A DNA stretch of 64,000 nt from Candidatus Nanohalarchaeota archaeon. Its GTDB lineage: Archaea; Nanohalarchaeota; Nanosalinia; Nanosalinales; JAFCCC01. The notes beneath the pieces were generated by a model. It saw nothing but the letters and a program-made list of their open reading frames with translations, was not told the DNA's origin and did not search any database. Both the position numbers and the translations under genes were made by a program. Below, in pieces: positions 1,064-49,667 of the stretch. The stretch's first letter is position 1; each line of letters starts with the position of its first letter. The stretch covers positions 94,570-158,569 of the forward strand of contig JAFCCC010000002.1 of assembly GCA_017610385.1 (NCBI GenBank). The letters are read 5' to 3'.

Positions 1064-3100
1064 ATGGGCTCGGTTTTGGAACAATTTCGAGAATTTCTTA
1101 GAGGAGAGCATAAATCAAAGAGACTGTATCATTATTTGGGTTGCTCATCTGGAGCTCCAGTTTCTGATAAGATACCTGTTTTATTGGGCAGACGAGCGGG
1201 GTGGGCCACGCGGCAAGGAGCCAATTTTATAGAATTGTTTACAGGACCGCCTTCTGAGTTGATTATGGAAAAAGAAGAATTAATTAATACTGCGGCCAGA
1301 TTAGGCCTTAATTATTCTATTCATCCCTCTGAGCAATTGGGCTTAGATAGTTCTTATGTCATGGCGAGAAATGGATATTTAATTGCTCAAGAATATTTAC
1401 GAAAAATCATAATTTATGCGGGATTATTAAAATTGGGGTTAATCGAGCGATTTAAAAAAGAAAGATTAAATACAGATGAAGTTCTTACTTCAATTAATAT
1501 TCACATTTCAAACAAGCCAATTCCACCTTTTGCTGAAAAATTGGCGGGGGATGTTTCTCTGGATCCATTTGGAAATGATATTAGAAAAGTACGATTGAAA
1601 AATGAAAAAGGAAAAGAGATTCCTCATCCGATTTTCTCAAATAAGTTATTCAGAGAACGACTTTGGAAACACTATATTTTACCGAATGAGGATAAACTGA
1701 TATTAGTAAGATTATTGGCTGAAAAAATAGCTAGAAAGCCCTTTGAAAAAATTTTTGAGAGCTATTTTAATAATCTTTTACAAAATCAACAATTTTCAGA
1801 AGACGAAGAAAAAAATAAAGAGATTATAAAAAAAGAAATGGCATTCCCATTTGATATACGATTTAAACGCCATACAAATTTACAAACGCCCGCAGTTGAA
1901 CATACCATACAAGACAAAAACATGTTTAAGGCGGTGGAGAAATCGTTTATAGAAAAAATTGATGGGATAGAAATTTTATGGGGAGGTCGTGTTGAATGTT
2001 TGAATCCAGATAAAATTCTTCAAGAATCTTTTTTGTTTAGGGAACTTTTGCCGAGATGGATGCCACACGCAAAAGAAAAACCAATTAGAGATATTTGGGA
2101 AGGAATTGTTGGTAAAAAATATAATGGTTCTGAAAAGGATGTCACTCAAGCTGAAAAAAAGCTTATAAAACTTCGTGCAGCTGTCAGAGGAGAACAAAAA
2201 ATTATAGCAGCTTCAGCAGGCGCATATACTTGGGGACATCTTACTCAATACACGGATTGGGCTCCGGGAGTTCCAGAGTATGATGGAAGCAATAAAAAAA
2301 AGCCTAAAAAGGCCACATTAGCTGAGCTTTTGGCACATTTTAAAATTCAAATTACCCTAGAGTGTCATATGTCGGGGGGGTTAGGAGAAACTATACGAAT
2401 TTTTGCTCCAGAGGATGTTCTAGTTATTGCAAAAGCCGTAAATGAAACTAAAAGTCCATTAACAAAAAAAACATATGATATTGCAAGAATAACCATTGAC
2501 ATGGAACAGATTTCAACAATGGGTGTAGATCCTATTTGGATGATGAAAGGAGATAAAGCACAAGGATTCAAAGGATTATCCATTAAAAAACAAGATGGAA
2601 AATTCATTAGAGTGGTGCACGTCACACACCCCTATATTATGATGGGTGGTTCTGGACACCAACACGGACCAATAAGAAGAGGGGATACGCAGGTATTCAA
2701 ATATCTTTACCTGATGAATGAAAGAGGAATGGGAAGTCGCGAAAATGAAAAAACAATTATAATGTATGAAATTGGAACTGAAAAAGCAGAATCTGTTTTT
2801 ATGATAAGATTGATGATTGAAATGATTGAAGCAGGAATAACTCCAAAAGATTTAAAAGTTGAGAACATTCAAGAGTTAATGGATAAAGAACCACGAGATT
2901 TAAAGGAGAAACTGATTCAAGAATTCTTTGGATTGAGTGAAGCTGAAATGAGACAAGAATGGGCACAAATTCAAGAGCATACTACAGACCCGTTAAAGGG
3001 GATGTTAGGATCTACAAAACCAGATCATACTTGGACTGGAAAAGCGGCACTAGATCGAAGAAATGCTCCAGAAGAATATAAAGGAGAACAATATAAGTAA
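1064..3100 (+). CDS. large xylose-isomerase-like TIM-barrel / AP-endonuclease-2 superfamily-like protein with a big internal insertion (tentative)
   Basis: Strand-end motifs occur in the order seen in endonuclease IV / sugar-phosphate isomerase barrels: ANFIELF, YSIHPSE, INIHISN, ITLECHM, ITIDMEQ, VVHVTHP..GHQHGPIRRGD, IMYEIGTE. About 270 aa are inserted between IHIS and LECH. Assignment is by motif order only. Confidence 0.4.
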   Translation: MGSVLEQFREFLRGEHKSKRLYHYLGCSSGAPVSDKIPVLLGRRAGWATRQGANFIELFTGPPSELIMEKEELINTAARLGLNYSIHPSEQLGLDSSYVMARNGYLIAQEYLRKIIIYAGLLKLGLIERFKKERLNTDEVLTSINIHISNKPIPPFAEKLAGDVSLDPFGNDIRKVRLKNEKGKEIPHPIFSNKLFRERLWKHYILPNEDKLILVRLLAEKIARKPFEKIFESYFNNLLQNQQFSEDEEKNKEIIKKEMAFPFDIRFKRHTNLQTPAVEHTIQDKNMFKAVEKSFIEKIDGIEILWGGRVECLNPDKILQESFLFRELLPRWMPHAKEKPIRDIWEGIVGKKYNGSEKDVTQAEKKLIKLRAAVRGEQKIIAASAGAYTWGHLTQYTDWAPGVPEYDGSNKKKPKKATLAELLAHFKIQITLECHMSGGLGETIRIFAPEDVLVIAKAVNETKSPLTKKTYDIARITIDMEQISTMGVDPIWMMKGDKAQGFKGLSIKKQDGKFIRVVHVTHPYIMMGGSGHQHGPIRRGDTQVFKYLYLMNERGMGSRENEKTIIMYEIGTEKAESVFMIRLMIEMIEAGITPKDLKVENIQELMDKEPRDLKEKLIQEFFGLSEAEMRQEWAQIQEHTTDPLKGMLGSTKPDHTWTGKAALDRRNAPEEYKGEQYK

Positions 3101-27288: not shown

Positions 27289-27441
27289 TTTTCGGAAACT
27301 CAAATTGGATATAACAATTTATATACGTAATTTTATATCTAATTTAAGTGTATAAAACTATATGGGCGAACTTGAAACGTTGAATTTGGAATTCTTTTAT
27401 CTATCTGATCTTTAGAATGCTGGGAGACGAGATTCAAACGC

Positions 27442-27545
27442 AACTGCGGTCAGTTGCATCAACACGTAAAACTCTTACGAGTTTTCCTAACTTGTGAACA
27501 AAATTCACAAGCACAGCGGATTACTGCGTAACTTACTTCACTTTT
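27442..27545 (-). repeat. W element copy 1 (three-hairpin, about 104 nt), inverted relative to copy 2
   Basis: The 59-nt core 27458-27516 is the reverse complement of 35309-35367 with one mismatch. The flanks are homologous but diverged. Confidence 0.85.
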
Positions 27546-27572
27546 CGCTTAAGCCTTTTGTTAAAAAGGCTT
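27541..27572 (-). repeat. Z hairpin unit (aagcctttt..aaaaggctt + aagcgaaaag), downstream of tRNA-Leu
   Basis: The reverse complement matches 46626-46657 at 30 of 32 positions. Both differences fall in the loop. Confidence 0.85.
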
Positions 27573-27576
27573 ATTT

Positions 27577-27659
27577 TGCGAGGGACGAGATTTGAACTCG
27601 CGGACTCCTACGAGACTAGGCCCTCAACCTAGCGCCTTTGACCACTTGGCTACCCCCGC
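27577..27659 (-). tRNA. tRNA-Leu (anticodon GAG), class II, no intron
   Basis: Hand-folded. Acceptor is GCGGGGG/CCCTCGC and the D arm is GCC-AAGTGGTCAAA-GGC. The anticodon stem CTAGG/CCTAG carries loop TTGAGGG. There is a long variable arm, the T arm is GCGAG-TTCAAAT-CTCGT, and the discriminator is A. Confidence 0.9.
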
Positions 27660-27724
27660 AACTGAAACGCCAGCTGGTACCAACAGCGAATTATTAATAT
27701 AACTCATTTTCATTTTCAGTTTAA

Positions 27725-27755
27725 TTTTCGCTTAAACCTTTTACTGAAAAGGTTT
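27725..27755 (-). repeat. Z hairpin unit, upstream of tRNA-Leu
   Basis: The reverse complement aaaccttttcagtaaaaggtttaagcgaaaa matches 46565-46595 at 28 of 31 positions. One difference is a compensatory G-C to A-T stem change. Confidence 0.8.
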
Positions 27756-27842
27756 AGAATAAGAAGGAATATTAATCTTTCTTTATTGCTTTTTTCGTGT
27801 TTTATACAAATTTATAATAACTCTATTAGCCAATTTTTGAGT

Positions 27843-34764: not shown

Positions 34765-34970
34765 TCATTTGCACTAGCATATAATTCGATAATTTTTTCA
34801 GCTTCCTCTCTTTTTAAGATTTGAACAATTTCCTTTTGAGAAACTAAGACATAATCATTCAATTTTGGTTTTAAAATTAGGACTCCTGCCTCTCTTTTTA
34901 ATCCAGAATAGTCTACAATAACTGAATCATCTTTTAGTTCAATCACTTTTCCAGGAATTGCCATACACAT
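34761..34970 (-). CDS. hypC: hydrogenase assembly chaperone HypC
   Basis: Carries MCMAIPGKVIEL. The start is set at the Met directly preceding the essential Cys. The ORF track starts 3 codons earlier. Confidence 0.8.
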   Translation of the reverse strand: MCMAIPGKVIELKDDSVIVDYSGLKREAGVLILKPKLNDYVLVSQKEIVQILKREEAEKIIELYASANE

Positions 34971-35068
34971 TTTAATCAATTAATTATATTTTCTTTCTAA
35001 TTACTCTCTTTGAAGCATAGTATAAACTATATTATTTTTTAAGAATTTTTACTATTAATAAGATGATG

Positions 35069-35160
35069 TCCGAACGCTCGGATGCCTGCAAAATCAGGCA
35101 ACACTTTGGGCTACACTCATTTCGTGAGGCAACCTTCACAAAAGTAACCGGCAAATCAGA
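35069..35160. repeat. cluster of short hairpins in the hypC / tRNA-Tyr divergent spacer
   Basis: The hairpins are tccga-acgc-tcgga, tgcctg-caaaat-caggca and ctca-tttcg-tgag. The first 14-mer recurs reverse-complemented at 46506-46519. Confidence 0.5.
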
Positions 35161-35280
35161 GAACACTTAAAGATGGTTTTGGTTTCATCTCAAGCACATA
35201 TTTAAAAACTTATTTGAAAAAGGAAGTATAGTAAGTTGCTCGCAATTACGCTTTTTAGATAGAAAGTATAATTTAAACTA

Positions 35281-35383
35281 AAAAGTGAAGTCTGTTGTGT
35301 ATAACCGACTGTGCTTGTGAATTTTGTTCACAAGGTAGGAAAACTCGTAAGAGTTTTACGTGTTGATACAACTAACTGTAGTT
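35281..35383 (+). repeat. W element copy 2, ending exactly at tRNA-Tyr nucleotide 1
   Basis: See copy 1. The hairpins lie at 35314-35334, 35338-35359 (GTAA loop) and 35370-35383. Confidence 0.85.
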
Positions 35384-35562
35384 TCCCGACTTAACTCAAT
35401 GGTAGAGTGTCCGGCTGTAGACTTTGGACGCCGCAAACCTTCAAAGGTTTGTACCGGGATGTTCCCGGTTCGAATTAGCCCTTTGTACAGGCAAGCGTAC
35501 AAAAGCGTTAGCAGAAAGTACGCTTCCGCAAATGAATGGTTACGAAAATCCGGGAGTCGGGA
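35384..35562 (+). tRNA. tRNA-Tyr (anticodon GUA) with two introns (anticodon loop 37/38 and T-loop)
   Basis: Hand-folded. Acceptor is CCCGACT/AGTCGGG and the D arm is ACTC-AATGGTA-GAGT. The anticodon stem is TCCGG/CCGGG with loop CTGTAG|A. The T stem is CCCGG/CCGGG with TTCGAAT. Intron 1 is about 35420-35451 and intron 2 about 35475-35549. Confidence 0.85.
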
Positions 35563-35577
35563 TTTCTTTTTATTTTT
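35563..35577 (+). terminator. oligo-T tract after tRNA-Tyr
   Basis: The sequence tttctttttattttt lies directly 3' of the discriminator base. This matches the archaeal oligo-T termination signal type. Confidence 0.4.
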
Positions 35578-35638
35578 GTAAAGGTTCTGTAGTGTACTCA
35601 GAACATAGAGATATATTATTTTATGAGAATGGTATTTT

Positions 35639-36010
35639 ATGAAAAGAGAGAATACGAGTTATCAACAACAACTAGGGGCTCTATTACGTAAAGATTTTGA
35701 AATATATGTTGAAAAGTATATTAGAGAAGATGTTGCAATACGAAACATATACACTGAACTTGATAAATCAAGTGTAGCACCACCAGAAAGGCTAGTAAGA
35801 TCGTACATAAACTCTTTATTTACTGAGGGCATATACGGACGTTGTGGCATACTGAATGAAAAGAAAGAGAGAGAAAGACTAACACGGTTGGCAATTTTCG
35901 GGAGACTTGTGAATCTTAGTTCTGAAACACGCCAACGCCTTGAAGAAGAAGTTACTAAAAAAGGTGCATGGGCTCTAGAAGAATTTAGGCGTTTATTTGA
36001 CGCTGACTAA
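35639..36010 (+). CDS. hypothetical protein
   Basis: 123-aa ORF; no motif recognised. It lies in a visibly less AT-rich stretch. Confidence 0.45.
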   Translation: MKRENTSYQQQLGALLRKDFEIYVEKYIREDVAIRNIYTELDKSSVAPPERLVRSYINSLFTEGIYGRCGILNEKKERERLTRLAIFGRLVNLSSETRQRLEEEVTKKGAWALEEFRRLFDAD

Positions 36011-45608: not shown

Positions 45609-46205
45609 ATGCTCAATTTTATATGGGTCGAAGTTCAATATTTTTTTATGGGGCAAAAAAAGAAAAATGAGACGCAGAAGATGTTGGGTGAATCTGATCA
45701 GGAAAATCAGAAAACACTATCTGAACAAACTGAACAAACCAAAATCGAAGATACACAAATTGAAGAAAAAGTTCCAGAACAAACTCTAGAAGAACTATCT
45801 GCAGAAGAATCAGTTCCAATAGAAAAAACTGTGCCAGAACCTTCTAAGGTTACTATCGGAGAGACGCCTAAGAATAAGGAAACAGAAAAAAAGAAAGAAG
45901 AATCTGAGGAAAATGTAATTCCTATTGAGATGGCTCCAGATTGTGAAAGCTGCGGAATGCCTATGCAAAGAGCTACAGATCATGGTAACGAAGATTTGAA
46001 TAATCCGTACTGCGTGAGTTGTACTGATGACGAAGGTAAACTAAAAAGTTTTGATGTTGTTAAAACGCAGATGATTGAGTTTTATACTCAAATTAAAAAT
46101 TGTTCGTGGTTAGAGGCTGAGAATGTAGTTGCTGAAATGATGAAACATTTGCCAGCATGGAATAAAAATGAAAAACCAAAAGAAGAAAGTGTGTCTACCC
46201 AATAA
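45609..46205 (+). CDS. acidic protein with a C-terminal putative zinc-ribbon domain
   Basis: Contains CESCGMPM...NPYCVSCTDDEGKL (CxxC...CxxC). The real start may be the internal MGQKKK (nt 45648). Confidence 0.5.
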   Translation: MLNFIWVEVQYFFMGQKKKNETQKMLGESDQENQKTLSEQTEQTKIEDTQIEEKVPEQTLEELSAEESVPIEKTVPEPSKVTIGETPKNKETEKKKEESEENVIPIEMAPDCESCGMPMQRATDHGNEDLNNPYCVSCTDDEGKLKSFDVVKTQMIEFYTQIKNCSWLEAENVVAEMMKHLPAWNKNEKPKEESVSTQ

Positions 46206-46464
46206 ACTCTTGAAGTTCCGTTTCAGCTTCTGGGGTATCTAATACTCCCGCAACTTCCTCAATTTCTGCATATTCTCTTAATTCGTCTAACTTTTTGTCT
46301 AATTTTTCAATAGATTCATCTTCACAAACGCAAACAATCACAAAAGGGTCTAATGCAAAATGATGAAGTTCTTTTAATTCTAAGGCAAATCCTTTATTTT
46401 TTACTTTGCTTATGAACTCCTTGAACTTCGCTTCAATTACTCTAAACTCCAAAAAGAATTTCAT
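46195..46464 (-). CDS. hypothetical small protein
   Basis: 89-aa ORF; no motif recognised. Confidence 0.4.
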   Translation of the reverse strand: MKFFLEFRVIEAKFKEFISKVKNKGFALELKELHHFALDPFVIVCVCEDESIEKLDKKLDELREYAEIEEVAGVLDTPEAETELQEFIG

Positions 46465-46505
46465 TTCCTTTAGTTTTTAATACAAAACATTTAAATACGT
46501 TAAAT

Positions 46506-46830
46506 TCCGAGCGTTCGGATAAGCTTTTTGCACAAAAGTAAAGGCGCAAAAATCTTAAGCAAATAAGCCTTTTTAGTAAAAGGCTTAAGCGAAAATTAAA
46601 CAGCGAGTTACGAGTATAACTCACTAAGCCTTTTTAGTAAAAGGCTTAAGCGAAAAGAAAATGAGCTTTTCAGATAAAAGCTCACGGAAACTTGTTAAGT
46701 TTCCTAAATCGGAAATTAATGCATTTCCAATTCAAGCAAAATAAGCGTTTTGCACAAAAGTAAACGTGCAAAAATCTTAAGCAAAAATACGTTACCACCA
46801 AGCGTTTTTAAAGAACGGTTTAATCCAAAT
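46506..46830. repeat. array C of back-to-back hairpin modules
   Basis: At least nine consecutive stem-loops. They include the 31-nt Z unit twice (46565-46595, 46626-46656), block Y (46663-46746) and block X (46743-46798). Confidence 0.85.
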
Positions 46831-46981
46831 TAATCTTAATCACATGAAGGCAATTACCAACTTAAGTGACATTCCTTTGCAAATCCATTTTACAAGACCA
46901 CGCACAAGAAAATAAATAAAAATAAAACAAAACGAAATACACTTAAAGTTGTAAAGTAATTACTTACTCAGGGTAAAAACA

Positions 46982-47434
46982 ATGGATTACAAACTTACGC
47001 AAGCAGAAAAAGAAGATTTAATCCAACTCGGTCTTGAAACAGAATTCAACTTTGATTGTGATGATTTAGACGAAGGTCAACGTGGATCTTACATTCCAAA
47101 AATCTTCGAAAGATCAGAAACACCAGGTTATTCTGTCGTGATTCAAAATGGTCGCCTTTTAGTGGTGGCGGATGACTCTGGTCAAGAATATGTTGCAGTT
47201 GCAGCATCATCCCAGTTAACTACCGATGATTTTGCTACAGAAAAATCTCAAAATGCTGAAAAAATGTTTGATGAACTATTTTTGGCGGACGAACAAGGAG
47301 ATCTTTTACCAAAATCAAGAGAAGAAGAAATTTCGGCATTTTTGAATGGCGTCAAAAAAGAACTTGGAAGAATGTATGATAAATCACAAAAAGACTACGA
47401 ACAGTGGAAAAAAGAACAGGAAACAGAAGTATAA
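46982..47434 (+). CDS. hypothetical acidic protein
   Basis: 150-aa ORF; no motif recognised. Confidence 0.45.
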   Translation: MDYKLTQAEKEDLIQLGLETEFNFDCDDLDEGQRGSYIPKIFERSETPGYSVVIQNGRLLVVADDSGQEYVAVAASSQLTTDDFATEKSQNAEKMFDELFLADEQGDLLPKSREEEISAFLNGVKKELGRMYDKSQKDYEQWKKEQETEV

Positions 47435-47539: not shown

Positions 47540-47653
47540 GTTGGCGGTCACAGCGAAGGGGCCACACCCGTACCCATTTCGAACACGGAAGTTAAGCCCT
47601 TCAGCGATTCGAACAGTACTTTCTTCGGAAGGGAAAATCGAGACGCTGCCAGC
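47540..47653 (+). rRNA. rrf: 5S ribosomal RNA
   Basis: The sequence GGCGGTCACAGCGAAGGGGCCACACCCGTACCCATTTCGAACACGGAAGTTAAGCCCTTCAGCG...GTACT... matches the conserved 5S core. The termini pair as helix I. The ends are accurate to within a few nt. Confidence 0.9.
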
Positions 47654-47667
47654 TTATTTTTACTTTT
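47654..47667 (+). terminator. T-rich tract after 5S rRNA
   Basis: The sequence ttatttttactttt lies immediately 3' of helix I. Confidence 0.35.
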
Positions 47668-48129: not shown

Positions 48130-48221
48130 AAATATATTTAAGGTGAGTGATCATTTATTAATTATCCATACTTGCCCTAAACGAAACCTTTAAAAATTCA
48201 AGCACAGAATGGTTACAAAGT

Positions 48222-48432
48222 AAGCCTTTTTAGCGAATAAGCTTTTTGCACAAAAGTAAACGTGCAAAAATCTTAACCAAAAATACGTTACCACTGAGCT
48301 TTTCAGATAAAAGCTCACGGAAACTTGTTAAGTTTCCTAAATCGGAAATTAATGCATTTCCAATTCAAGCAAAATAAGCCGTTTAATAAAGGCTTAAGCG
48401 AATAAGCTTTTCAAATAAAGGCTTAAGCAAAA
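48222..48432. repeat. array D of hairpin modules upstream of tRNA-Asp
   Basis: Contains a truncated Z unit (48222-48233), block X (48239-48294), block Y (48296-48379) and two degenerate Z-like hairpins (about 48375-48432). Confidence 0.85.
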
Positions 48433-48473
48433 TAAAAACAAAAATCCTAAACCCAAAATTAAAAATAGATGAT

Positions 48474-48608
48474 GCCTCGGTAGTGTAGTGAAGTTTATGT
48501 CTTTTTGACAAACTCTATAGGCCCATCATACACGCCTGTCAATCCGCAAAAGAAGGAGCTTTGTGGAACAGATCGCGTGTGACACGGGTTCGACTCCCGT
48601 TCGAGGCG
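48474..48608 (+). tRNA. tRNA-Asp (anticodon GUC) with two introns (D-loop and anticodon loop 37/38)
   Basis: Hand-folded. Acceptor is GCCTCGG/TCGAGGC. The D region GTGT-AGTG[30-nt intron]GCCCATCAT matches the archaeal tRNA-Asp D-loop. The anticodon stem is CACGC/GCGTG with CTGTCA[32-nt intron]C. The T arm is ACGGG-TTCGACT-CCCGT. Confidence 0.85.
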
Positions 48609-48641
48609 CTCTTTAATTATTCTAAAGTTTCATTACTAAAT

Positions 48642-48760
48642 ATGAATATTTTTCTAACATTTGTGTGGATTTATGCGGCCATGTTTGCGATGTCGTTTTA
48701 GGAGGCGTATGTAGAAGGAAGAATGCGCGGATAAAGGGAAAATTGAGTTAGAAATACAAT
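48642..48760 (+). pseudogene. decayed duplicate of the 5' end of the membrane-protein gene at 49224
   Basis: Aligns without gaps to 49224-49340 at roughly three quarters identity. It carries in-frame stops, for example TGG to TAG at codon 20. Confidence 0.75.
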
Positions 48761-49223: not shown

Positions 49224-49667
49224 ATGAATATCTGGTTAATTTTTGTTTGGATATATGCCGCTATGTTTGCAATGTCTTTTTGGGAATCATATGTTGAAGG
49301 TAGAAAAGCGTGGACAAAAGGAAAACTTGGTTGGAAATGGAAAATAACTAGAAGGCTTTGTTTTGACGGATATCATTTTTATTTGGATATAATCATGTTG
49401 CCTTTGTTAATTATGCTTCCTTTAGTTGTTTTTGGATGGGATCAAAGGATTTTTGGAGTCTTACTCAGCGCATATTTTTCCGGAACAATAGTCGAAGATT
49501 TTGGATGGTATATAGTTAATCCAAAAGTTAAATTAAGAGAATTTTGGAGTTCTTTTTCAGATTATTATCCTTGGATTAAAATTGGAAAAAAGAAAATACT
49601 TCCTTGGGGGTATGTTATAGCAATTGTAATTTCAATTCTTTCTTGGTACTTTTTGTGGAGGTTGTGA
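49224..49667 (+). CDS. small integral membrane protein
   Basis: 147 aa with about four TM segments. Its stop overlaps the next start (TGATG). Confidence 0.6.
   Translation: MNIWLIFVWIYAAMFAMSFWESYVEGRKAWTKGKLGWKWKITRRLCFDGYHFYLDIIMLPLLIMLPLVVFGWDQRIFGVLLSAYFSGTIVEDFGWYIVNPKVKLREFWSSFSDYYPWIKIGKKKILPWGYVIAIVISILSWYFLWRL

Follow-up and report, generated by a model that had tools for sequence, protein, structure and literature searches.

What kind of element builds a chain of short hairpins set back to back, and how does such a chain come to lie between two protein genes of an archaeon? The question is raised by a spacer of 517 bp at 46.5 kb of a 64,000-nucleotide (nt) stretch of DNA from a Candidatus Nanohalarchaeota archaeon (contig JAFCCC010000002.1; the whole stretch is called the window below). 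The original prediction had assigned the chain to the repetitive extragenic palindromes and bacterial interspersed mosaic elements (REP/BIME), which are mobilised by REP-associated tyrosine transposases (RAYT). The answer reached here, which we hold with middling confidence, is that the spacer carries a mosaic array of intron-type hairpin cassettes, which would be duplicative, possibly selfish, and shuffled by recombination at the TAAGC junctions they share. The modules of the array are Z (UAAGC-Y-UUUU / AAAA-R-GCUUA), X, in which the Z stem is extended by a hairpin with a GUAAAC loop, and short GGA...UCC hairpins. As judged from sequence comparison, the window units are homologous to cassettes found in introns of DPANN archaea; within the window, modules occur only in spacers beside tRNA and 5S rRNA genes and are always co-oriented with these; and whole modules appear to be gained, lost and converted rapidly between near-identical strains. 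The host of the window is itself a DPANN archaeon. The nearest named proteins of its RpoB'' come from Nanohaloarchaeota (62-69% identity), and the window shows 33% G+C, intron-containing tRNA genes, a free-standing 5S rRNA gene, a split RpoB and mostly leaderless genes with TATA boxes, located 26-35 nt upstream of the ATG.

The array at 46.5 kb and its counterparts in the window

The spacer is bounded by a gene for an 89-amino-acid protein on the minus strand (46195-46464) and by an open reading frame (ORF) on the plus strand, ORF150 (46982-47434). Array 1 occupies positions 46506-46835 with about ten hairpins back to back; every unit of the chain described in the original prediction was recovered in its place, and the chain runs on to about 46835. 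A hairpin scan (at least 8 pairs, at most one mismatch) detected seven hairpins in 325 nt, compared with about 0.7 expected from the 146 found in 64,000 nt, which is about nine times the hairpin density of the window, and two shorter ones (46506-46519 and 46605-46622) are present in addition. RNAfold converts the region 46500-46850 into a string of local hairpins at -85.6 kcal/mol, as compared to a mean of -60.4 kcal/mol for shuffled sequences (z = -5.75; none of 100 shuffles is as stable).

All units of array 1 are given here as read on the plus strand. A TATA-like box (catttaaatacg, 46488-46499) precedes them, which is the promoter of the leaderless minus-strand 89-amino-acid gene; it lies about 27 nt 5' of the first plus-strand TAAGC, and we infer that it is also used on the plus strand. 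The chain opens with the hairpin tccga-gcgt-tcgga (46506-46519), of which an exact inverted copy exists at 35069-35082, and continues with unit X' (46519-46563), which is degenerate in the window (GGCGC) and perfect in a second strain represented by contig L001 (CGTGC). X' shares 93% identity with unit X (46741-46785), 222 nt away according to the repeat finder. The first Z copy (TAAGCCTTTTTAGTAAAAGGCTTA with the tail AGCGAAAA, 46564-46595) and the second, identical one (46625-46656) are separated by the hairpin gagtta-cgagta-taactc (46605-46622), which resembles the start of an element located 3' of a tRNA-Leu gene (aagttacgcagta; see element E below). The claimed exact repeat of Z after 61 nt was borne out, with the copies placed at 46564-46600 and 46625-46661 by the repeat finder and 32 identical nt by BLAST. 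Next come a Z variant with GAGC/GCTC ends (TGAGCTTTTCAGATAAAAGCTCA, 46662-46684; 100% identity to 48295-48317), a hairpin of the GGA...TCC type seen in the scan and in the fold (GGAAACTTGTTAAGTTTCC, 46686-46704), and a hairpin around GGAAAT-TAATGC-ATTTCC (46707-46732), which is part of 77 nt absent from strain L001. Unit X with its tail (AAGCGTTTTGCAC-AAAAGTAAAC-GTGCAAAAATCTT-AAGCAAAAATACGTTACCACC, 46741-46798) combines an outer stem of the Z type with a GTAAAC-loop hairpin inside it and is 97% identical to 48236-48294, and a degenerate Z-like unit (CAAGCGTTTTTAAAGAACGGTTTAATCCAAA, 46799-46835; 65% identity to Z) closes the array. The stable-RNA gene downstream of array 1 is that for 5S rRNA (47540-47654, plus strand), with ORF150 in between. 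ORF150 is an orphan, whose sole match among 5.8 billion proteins is itself and which contains no Pfam domain.

The consensus of Z can be written as T-AAGC-Y-TTTT-loop-AAAA-R-GCTT-A-AGC-N-AAAA, i.e. a 10-bp stem followed by the tail AGC-N-AAAA. A covariance model of Z (R1) was run over the entire window without filters, and its significant matches are confined to three places, at 27.5 kb (n = 2), 46.5 kb (n = 4) and 48.3 kb (n = 4), each match sharing its strand with the neighbouring tRNA or 5S rRNA gene. This agrees with the predicted modular array from a repeat family linked to such genes, and copies in related archaea were localised as well. The two Z copies of array 1 reach 53.4 bits (E = 2e-13) and 52.2 bits, the GAGC variant 17.4 bits, and unit X 16.9 bits, where the match covers the full length of Z and the loop takes up an insertion. 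The junction motif CTTAAGC, which the original prediction had read as the seam between modules, does concentrate at these places (12 of 14 matches inside the three module loci), but it is not enriched in the window as a whole (14 matches compared with 9.1 expected).

Array 2 (48220-48440, plus strand) consists of an orphan Z 5' arm, a unit X, hairpins of the GAGC, GGAAAC and GGAAAT types and two Z variants, and stops 34 nt upstream of an intron-containing tRNA gene (48474-48608, plus strand). Its first TAAGC is preceded at about 27 nt by a TATA-like box (48186-48199), and its fold is again non-random (z = -4.35), with a long-range pairing of 48221-48229 with 48388-48396 in the minimum-energy structure, as in the introns of relatives. 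The two arrays have in common a block of 85 nt with 100% identity and the X block of 59 nt with 97% identity, in reversed order. Just 3' of the tRNA gene, 48640-48730 (plus strand) looks like an eroded second copy of the N-terminal coding part of a 147-amino-acid ORF at 49224-49667 (IFVWIYAAMFAMSF). At the third locus, on the minus strand, Z units lie on both sides of a tRNA-Leu(GAG) gene (27576-27660). One of them (27539-27575, 53.8 bits) starts 4 nt past the 3' end of the gene, and the other (27722-27758, 46.2 bits), about 60 nt upstream, carries the compensatory stem AAACC/GGTTT, with TAAACC...GGTTTA at 27733-27756 in place of TAAGCC...GGCTTA.

All arrays of the window lie outside any detected RNA gene and interrupt no detected tRNA or rRNA gene. 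A CRISPR array was considered and rejected: the units are not alike and follow one another nearly without a gap, and a Pfam scan of about 50 window ORFs detected no cas domain. The GGAAAC dyads were also set aside as origin recognition boxes (ORB) of a replication origin, as the dyad order is the reverse of that of ORB and no orc1/cdc6 gene is found nearby.

Relatives of the modules in tRNA, rRNA and protein gene loci

The Z family was searched in one genome per species with the pattern AAGCNTTTN{4,8}AAANGCTTAAGC derived from the window. At least 116 loci were found, at least 46 of them archaeal, though archaea make up a small part of the collection. The archaeal matches listed come mostly from Aenigmatarchaeota, Woesearchaeota, Nanoarchaeota and other archaeal metagenome-assembled genomes, plus five from Methanosarcina, and range from 27% to 54% G+C. 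True members were told from chance matches by two features outside the search pattern, the T before AAGC and the A-rich tail. Among the matches listed, both features occur in all of the 43 from DPANN and other archaea, 41 of which also have a perfect stem of at least 8 bp, while the respective counts for T prefix, tail and stem are 15, 11 and 21 of 71 in Bacteria and 8, 0 and 3 of 20 in viral contigs; since the viral matches never combine T prefix and tail, they are regarded as chance matches. Three loci binned as Bacillota or Clostridiales (L014, L051 and L081; L numbers label genome or metagenome sequences outside the window) contain a perfect cassette of the archaeal type (T-AAGCTTTTTGAAAAAAGCTTAAGC-AAAAA) and may represent misbinned archaeal contigs or transfer. 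In Methanosarcina (L016, L020, L049, L077 and L105), the same hairpin and tail are intergenic, sometimes as two inverted copies between convergent genes and inside a longer local repeat.

Across 83 distinct full-length copies, 98.3% of the stem cells are paired, and compensatory changes occur in five of the ten stem pairs, a value reached in none of 500 shuffles. The suspected compensatory change in the stem, also visible at 27733-27756, was borne out. Since the pattern used to pick the seed copies prescribes part of the stem, it is the extra copies found by the model that vary informatively, and stem G.U pairs are too rare to separate selection at the RNA level from selection at the DNA level.

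Over half of the archaeal genome matches listed, and about 22 of 27 metagenome matches, lie inside tRNA genes; the population of the window itself was not among the latter. The contexts in multi-intron tRNA genes were mostly parsed by eye and otherwise taken from Rfam tRNA matches, as brute-force in-silico splicing with ARAGORN was too ambiguous for such genes and ARAGORN found none in the whole loci. In five loci (L023, L057, L112, L146 and L157), the Rfam tRNA model spans the hairpin. An intronic Z sits right after the 5' splice position, be it within gtctagT|AAGC of the D-loop, cttcccaaT|AAGC of the anticodon loop or ggttcaaaT|AAGC of the T-loop. Within the intron, the Z hairpin usually comes first and AGC-N-AAAA next; a hairpin of the GGAG...CUUCC type, a distal repeat of the Z 3' arm and 4 nt pairable with the exon follow, and because of this second arm the Z 5' arm can close either a local hairpin or the entire intron. 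About 18 non-redundant cases in tRNA genes are in sense and two in antisense orientation, as counted by eye after a T-arm motif heuristic had been dropped as too noisy. A split tRNA, with a 5' half ending in the U-tract and a 3' half starting in the hairpin, was rejected, since the promoter would fall inside the 5' exon.

The same connection exists for unit X, and one example lies in the window. A previously unannotated tRNA-Tyr(GTA) gene (35384-35562, plus strand) contains two introns, one at the canonical position (35422-35453) and one in the T-loop (35476-35548). Its spliced sequence is called tRNA-Tyr by ARAGORN, while the unspliced gene is missed by ARAGORN and by Rfam at the gathering threshold. 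The second intron holds an X-type hairpin, TTTGTAC-AGGCAAGC-GTACAAA followed by AGCGTT..GCTTCCGC, which with its loop AGGCAAGC is more diverged than the T-loop intron hairpins of relatives. In general, the inner hairpin of X, TTTTGCAC-(AAAA)GTAAAC-GTGCAAAA, corresponds to the first part of T-loop introns of the form GGTTCGAAT|GA.CCCTTTTGC.C-.GTAAAC-G.GCAAAAGCG..., which are present in L003 (in three tRNA genes), L039, L065 and L089, and its stems covary (GCAC/GTGC, GGAC/GTCC, GCCC/GGGC and GTAC/GTAC). With homologues of both Z and X in introns, both main module types of the arrays are intron building blocks.

Several further features were observed around the tRNA-Tyr and tRNA-Leu genes. An element of about 100 nt with three hairpins, element E, occurs at 27441-27546 (minus strand) and 35283-35383 (plus strand) with an identical core of 58 nt; the plus-strand copy abuts the 5' end of the tRNA-Tyr gene, and the minus-strand copy comes after the Z unit that lies 3' of tRNA-Leu. 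Its fold is stable (z = -3.5), and it matches neither an Rfam family (as searched with the tRNA-Tyr copy) nor viral contigs. Right after the minus-strand copy, 27415-27440 (minus strand) resembles the 3' end of a tRNA (GCGTTTGAATCTCGTCTCCCAGCA), with no matching 5' acceptor strand in the window, and may represent either a split tRNA's 3' half or an integration remnant. Upstream of element E and tRNA-Tyr, the non-coding region 35060-35200 (plus strand) begins with ATGATGT and contains the 14-nt hairpin tccgaacgctcgga, the inverted copy of 46506-46519.

The dyad symmetry of TAAGC-N12-14-GCTTA, together with its A/T tracts, would also suit a DNA site for a dimeric protein, so that the units might act as upstream activating or architectural sites or as tandem promoters that boost stable-RNA genes, comparable to FIS/UP sites or to the rRNA promoters that haloarchaea have in tandem. 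The position of the arrays upstream of tRNA and 5S rRNA genes and the ability of the cassette to flip, as seen in the tRNA-Ser(TGA) orthologues of L057 and L112 with cassettes at the canonical position in opposite orientations, are in line with such a role. However, TATA boxes of the ordinary kind lie at -28 to -45 of the tRNA genes, in the window as in the DPANN loci, and their distance to the cassette varies, most family members abut the 5' splice site in tRNA genes or follow stop codons, and the bias toward the sense strand within tRNA genes is strong; we therefore consider this function very improbable. The related idea of Z as a symmetric TATA-box promoter was rejected, as tRNA and protein genes of the window and of relatives have ordinary TATA boxes at -26 to -45.

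Cassettes are also found in rRNA operons, behind stop codons and in further arrays. The rRNA operon of L153 contains a Z-like insert in the 16S rRNA gene, a Z in the spacer tRNA gene, another 7 nt after this gene and two in tandem after the 23S rRNA gene. Its 16S rRNA region (1-320) shows the Z-like insert of about 50 nt as well as an insert of about 100 nt between AAGTCGTAA and CAAGGTAGCCGTA, and the 5S rRNA gene of L151 (1384-1565) is 182 nt long, compared with 120 nt for the model. In six loci (L009, L015, L032, L043, L097 and L102), a co-oriented gene uses the TAA of TAAGC as its stop codon. Further arrays of the same cassettes lie 3' of the L153 23S rRNA gene, in L097, as a tandem array of 70-nt Z-plus-GGAG units, and in L102, where Z-like units fill most intergenic regions and an array precedes a pilin-like gene. 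L102 also contains a candidate in-frame Z-like unit (2019-2052, minus strand) near the N-terminus of a secreted cysteine-rich protein (…LQAFQKSLSKR…).

These positions bring up the main rival explanation, namely that the modules are bidirectional archaeal terminators or insulators, with runs of U4-U6 after TAAGC on either strand and arrays that stop read-through from both sides. Archaeal termination depends on U-tracts, according to two reports (PMC8716108, PMC7515710), and a run of T4-T6 is present in every Z 5' arm. The Z unit directly 3' of tRNA-Leu begins 4 nt behind the gene, where other stable-RNA genes of the window have runs of T5-T7; in L153, the Z placed 7 nt past the spacer tRNA precedes a TATA box of the 23S rRNA gene, and two more units stand after that gene. 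To the six DPANN loci with stop-codon fusions come others in which the unit starts 4-50 nt past the end of a co-oriented gene, and in a generic scan array 1 contains four hairpin-plus-T-run sites on the minus strand and one on the plus strand, compared with a total of 1.3 in shuffled sequences. On the other hand, the same T4-T6 cassette is located in sense orientation inside dozens of tRNA genes which need read-through, including a tRNA-Ser gene with two T6 runs (L112); the arrays of the window lie between divergent genes and upstream of a tRNA gene, where no terminator is needed; about 65 genes of the window end without a cassette; and nine consecutive units would be excessive. Termination or insulation as the whole explanation is thus judged unlikely, although it should be taken more seriously than protein binding.

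The context of the relatives also bears on the assignment made in the original prediction. Short extragenic palindromes which are clustered and variable between strains (units of 18-45 nt, about ten in 330 nt) recall REP/BIME elements, and the distribution in L102, with most intergenic regions filled and one unit in frame in a coding sequence, is like that of REPs or Rickettsia palindromic elements (RPE). By definition, a REP bears at one of its ends a conserved tetranucleotide, GTAG or CGTC, that lies outside the stem (PMC3733652). Neither tag is present in the units analysed here, whose conserved TAAGC is base-paired; they are arranged head-to-tail only, the family is archaeal and linked to introns, and a Pfam scan of about 50 ORFs of the 64-kb window revealed no Y1/HUH transposase, whether flanked by such units or not, and no integrase or reverse transcriptase. 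An origin as RAYT-mobilised REP/BIME elements is accordingly the least probable of the explanations considered. Putative RNA elements co-transcribed with the tRNA and 5S rRNA genes, which had been named as an alternative, come closer to the evidence.

Differences between strains

A metagenome contig of 2.3 kb, L001, spans both arrays and allows a comparison with one other strain. For several hundred nt on each side, the flanks are essentially identical to those of the window, with a single substitution. In array 1, the window carries 77 nt more than L001, comprising the GGAAAT hairpin and the second X, and clustered substitutions make its GAGC hairpin identical to the copy in array 2, which looks like a conversion from a donor of the array-2 type joined at the shared TAAGC. 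In array 2, three differences separate the strains: a Z indel of 35 nt with a CAAAT direct repeat at its borders, an exchange between the GGAAAC and GGAAAT hairpins, and a 39-nt stretch duplicated in tandem. These indels, swaps and conversions beside identical flanks mark the arrays as hot spots of whole-module turnover by recombination or slippage. Turnover is also seen in genes: two near-identical tRNA genes have a Z-type intron (L155) and an unrelated intron of 36 nt (L158) at the same D-loop site, and the oppositely oriented cassettes in the tRNA-Ser(TGA) orthologues of L057 and L112 are a further case. The CAAAT direct repeat is found at one indel junction and none at the other, hence a consistent target-site duplication is not apparent. 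Of the features of miniature inverted-repeat transposable elements, the arms do form inverted repeats, while the indel junctions lack a consistent duplication and the window ORFs scanned lack a transposase.

Other relatives gave less information on the locus. Among syntenic loci, ORF150 remained an orphan, and the ABC permease was without a close homologue; contigs anchored by RpoB'' (L166-L169) end short of the arrays and yielded weak partial matches to R1 only (best 16.8 bits, E of about 0.007).

The turnover bears on another explanation, according to which the arrays would encode small RNAs with a defined structure, or else form long leaders from which small or circular RNAs are cut, with transcription starting at TATA-like boxes and including the tRNA or 5S rRNA. 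Such boxes are indeed present 25-30 nt upstream of the first TAAGC in both arrays (46490 and 48189), and similar ones in L115, in L005 and twice in L102. The modules all share the orientation of the stable-RNA gene, and the folds depart strongly from random. In related introns, the GGAG...CUUCC helix keeps a conserved G.U pair, which suggests that selection acts on the RNA. However, functional RNA genes would not be expected to differ in module content even between strains, TATA-like strings are frequent at 33% G+C, and the T5 runs near the putative start would end transcription early. A search of the arrays and of 34950-35650 with Rfam 15, at the gathering threshold and at E <= 1, brought only the 5S rRNA and tRNA genes to threshold and no family match for the arrays even at E <= 1, apart from hits at chance level far below the gathering scores of the families, and no C/D or H/ACA box pattern was seen when the arrays were read by eye. 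Small RNA genes as the primary identity of the arrays are thus improbable, if somewhat less so than protein-binding sites.

Proposed origin of the cassettes and their meaning for tRNA introns

According to the favoured reading, i.e. a mosaic of intron-type cassettes, the units would be non-autonomous, duplicative and probably selfish, copied and reshuffled by recombination or slippage at TAAGC / GCTTAAGC and at the A-rich tails common to the modules, which would imply no dedicated transposase. They would persist where they are harmless: inside stable-RNA genes the splicing endonuclease would take them out, as we propose, and from the leaders, trailers and spacers of stable-RNA units they would be trimmed during processing. 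In the precursor RNA they would act merely as stable hairpins, which in introns form a helix beside the 5' splice site and in spacers may serve as U-tract or hairpin boundary elements. This reading and a role as terminator or insulator are not mutually exclusive; bacterial REPs are known as both selfish and co-opted elements.

Several observations weigh against it. The confinement to stable-RNA loci rests on three loci of one 64-kb window, and the sense bias in tRNA genes shows selection on orientation, which does not discriminate between mechanisms. The stop-codon fusions with their U4-U6 run fit a selected terminator better than a purely selfish element. Co-transcription and processing of the arrays are inferred, and no canonical bulge-helix-bulge was seen by inspection around the arrays or single modules, where relaxed motifs are possible, so that an excision of the arrays by the splicing endonuclease is unsupported. 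Finally, neither a mobilising enzyme among the window ORFs nor a target-site duplication was identified, and the modules can be called duplicative only as far as polymorphism and distribution, as read from the sequences, suggest it.

A comparison with known systems helps to delimit the cassettes. Introns with a bulge-helix-bulge, whose hallmark is two 3-nt bulges and a 4-bp helix at the boundaries, interrupt genes, as do the relatives in L023, L057, L112, L146 and L157 and the X-type module of tRNA-Tyr; the arrays do not, and at their ends and junctions inspection revealed no such hallmark, relaxed motifs being possible. The U-tract terminators of archaea, assisted by aCPSF1/FttA, resemble the cassettes in the U4-U6 run right after stable-RNA 3' ends and stop codons, but need neither a hairpin nor conserved flanks, whereas the cassettes also occur inside genes that are read through. 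With REP/BIME elements they share the palindromes of 20-45 nt in non-coding spacers, the clustered, mosaic and strain-variable arrangement and the compensated stems, and both can plausibly double as RNA hairpins or terminators; they differ by lacking an unpaired GTAG/CGTC tag, an alternating orientation and a RAYT among the window ORFs scanned, and by being archaeal and intron-linked. Like the RPE of Rickettsia, they are palindromes of selfish type tolerated within genes, here in tRNA and rRNA genes and in the one in-frame candidate of L102; the RPE, in contrast, measure 100-150 nt and are kept in the mature protein or RNA, while the cassettes span some 35-70 nt and should be removed from the RNA by splicing.

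The closest parallel is the 'transposition' of tRNA introns in Thermoproteales, which has been inferred from near-identical short introns at many positions of many tRNA genes, removed by the splicing endonuclease; the spread is presumed to occur at the DNA level by an unknown mechanism, and no mobile unit has been identified (work of 2010, as summarised in PMC4090602). The tRNA genes of DPANN archaea are, as in that lineage, unusually disrupted (PMC5829648). The present case differs in the lineage, in the defined 10-bp hairpin and tail as conserved unit, and in the occurrence of units outside genes, in arrays beside tRNA and 5S rRNA genes and after stop codons, as well as in rRNA genes and spacers, of which a literature search of limited reach returned no report. 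The same search found no description of the cassette or of extragenic arrays of intron modules, in keeping with the statement in the original prediction that the pattern is not a standard annotated feature of archaea.

A more far-reaching explanation, which we put forward tentatively and regard as less probable than the mosaic array of possibly selfish cassettes as such, though slightly ahead of the terminator, is that Z and X are mobile units which create the splicing-endonuclease introns in tRNA and rRNA genes of DPANN archaea. The arrays would then represent an extragenic reservoir or landing pad, and copies would move by DNA recombination at TAAGC or via RNA, through mis-ligation or reverse splicing by the endonuclease/ligase pair and subsequent fixation. 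If this is true, the locus presents, outside a gene, the agent long looked for behind the gain of introns in archaeal tRNA genes.

The gain of introns at many positions of archaeal tRNA genes is an open question, which the cassettes may help to explain. As a hairpin of 10 bp followed by a constant tail, they offer a defined target for searches that ties together introns of the D-, anticodon and T-loops, inserts in rRNA genes and extragenic arrays which differ between near-identical strains, and with Methanosarcina a culturable host is at hand for testing it. In practical terms, masking or modelling the cassettes would recover tRNA genes which are missed by standard tools, such as the tRNA-Tyr gene of the window.

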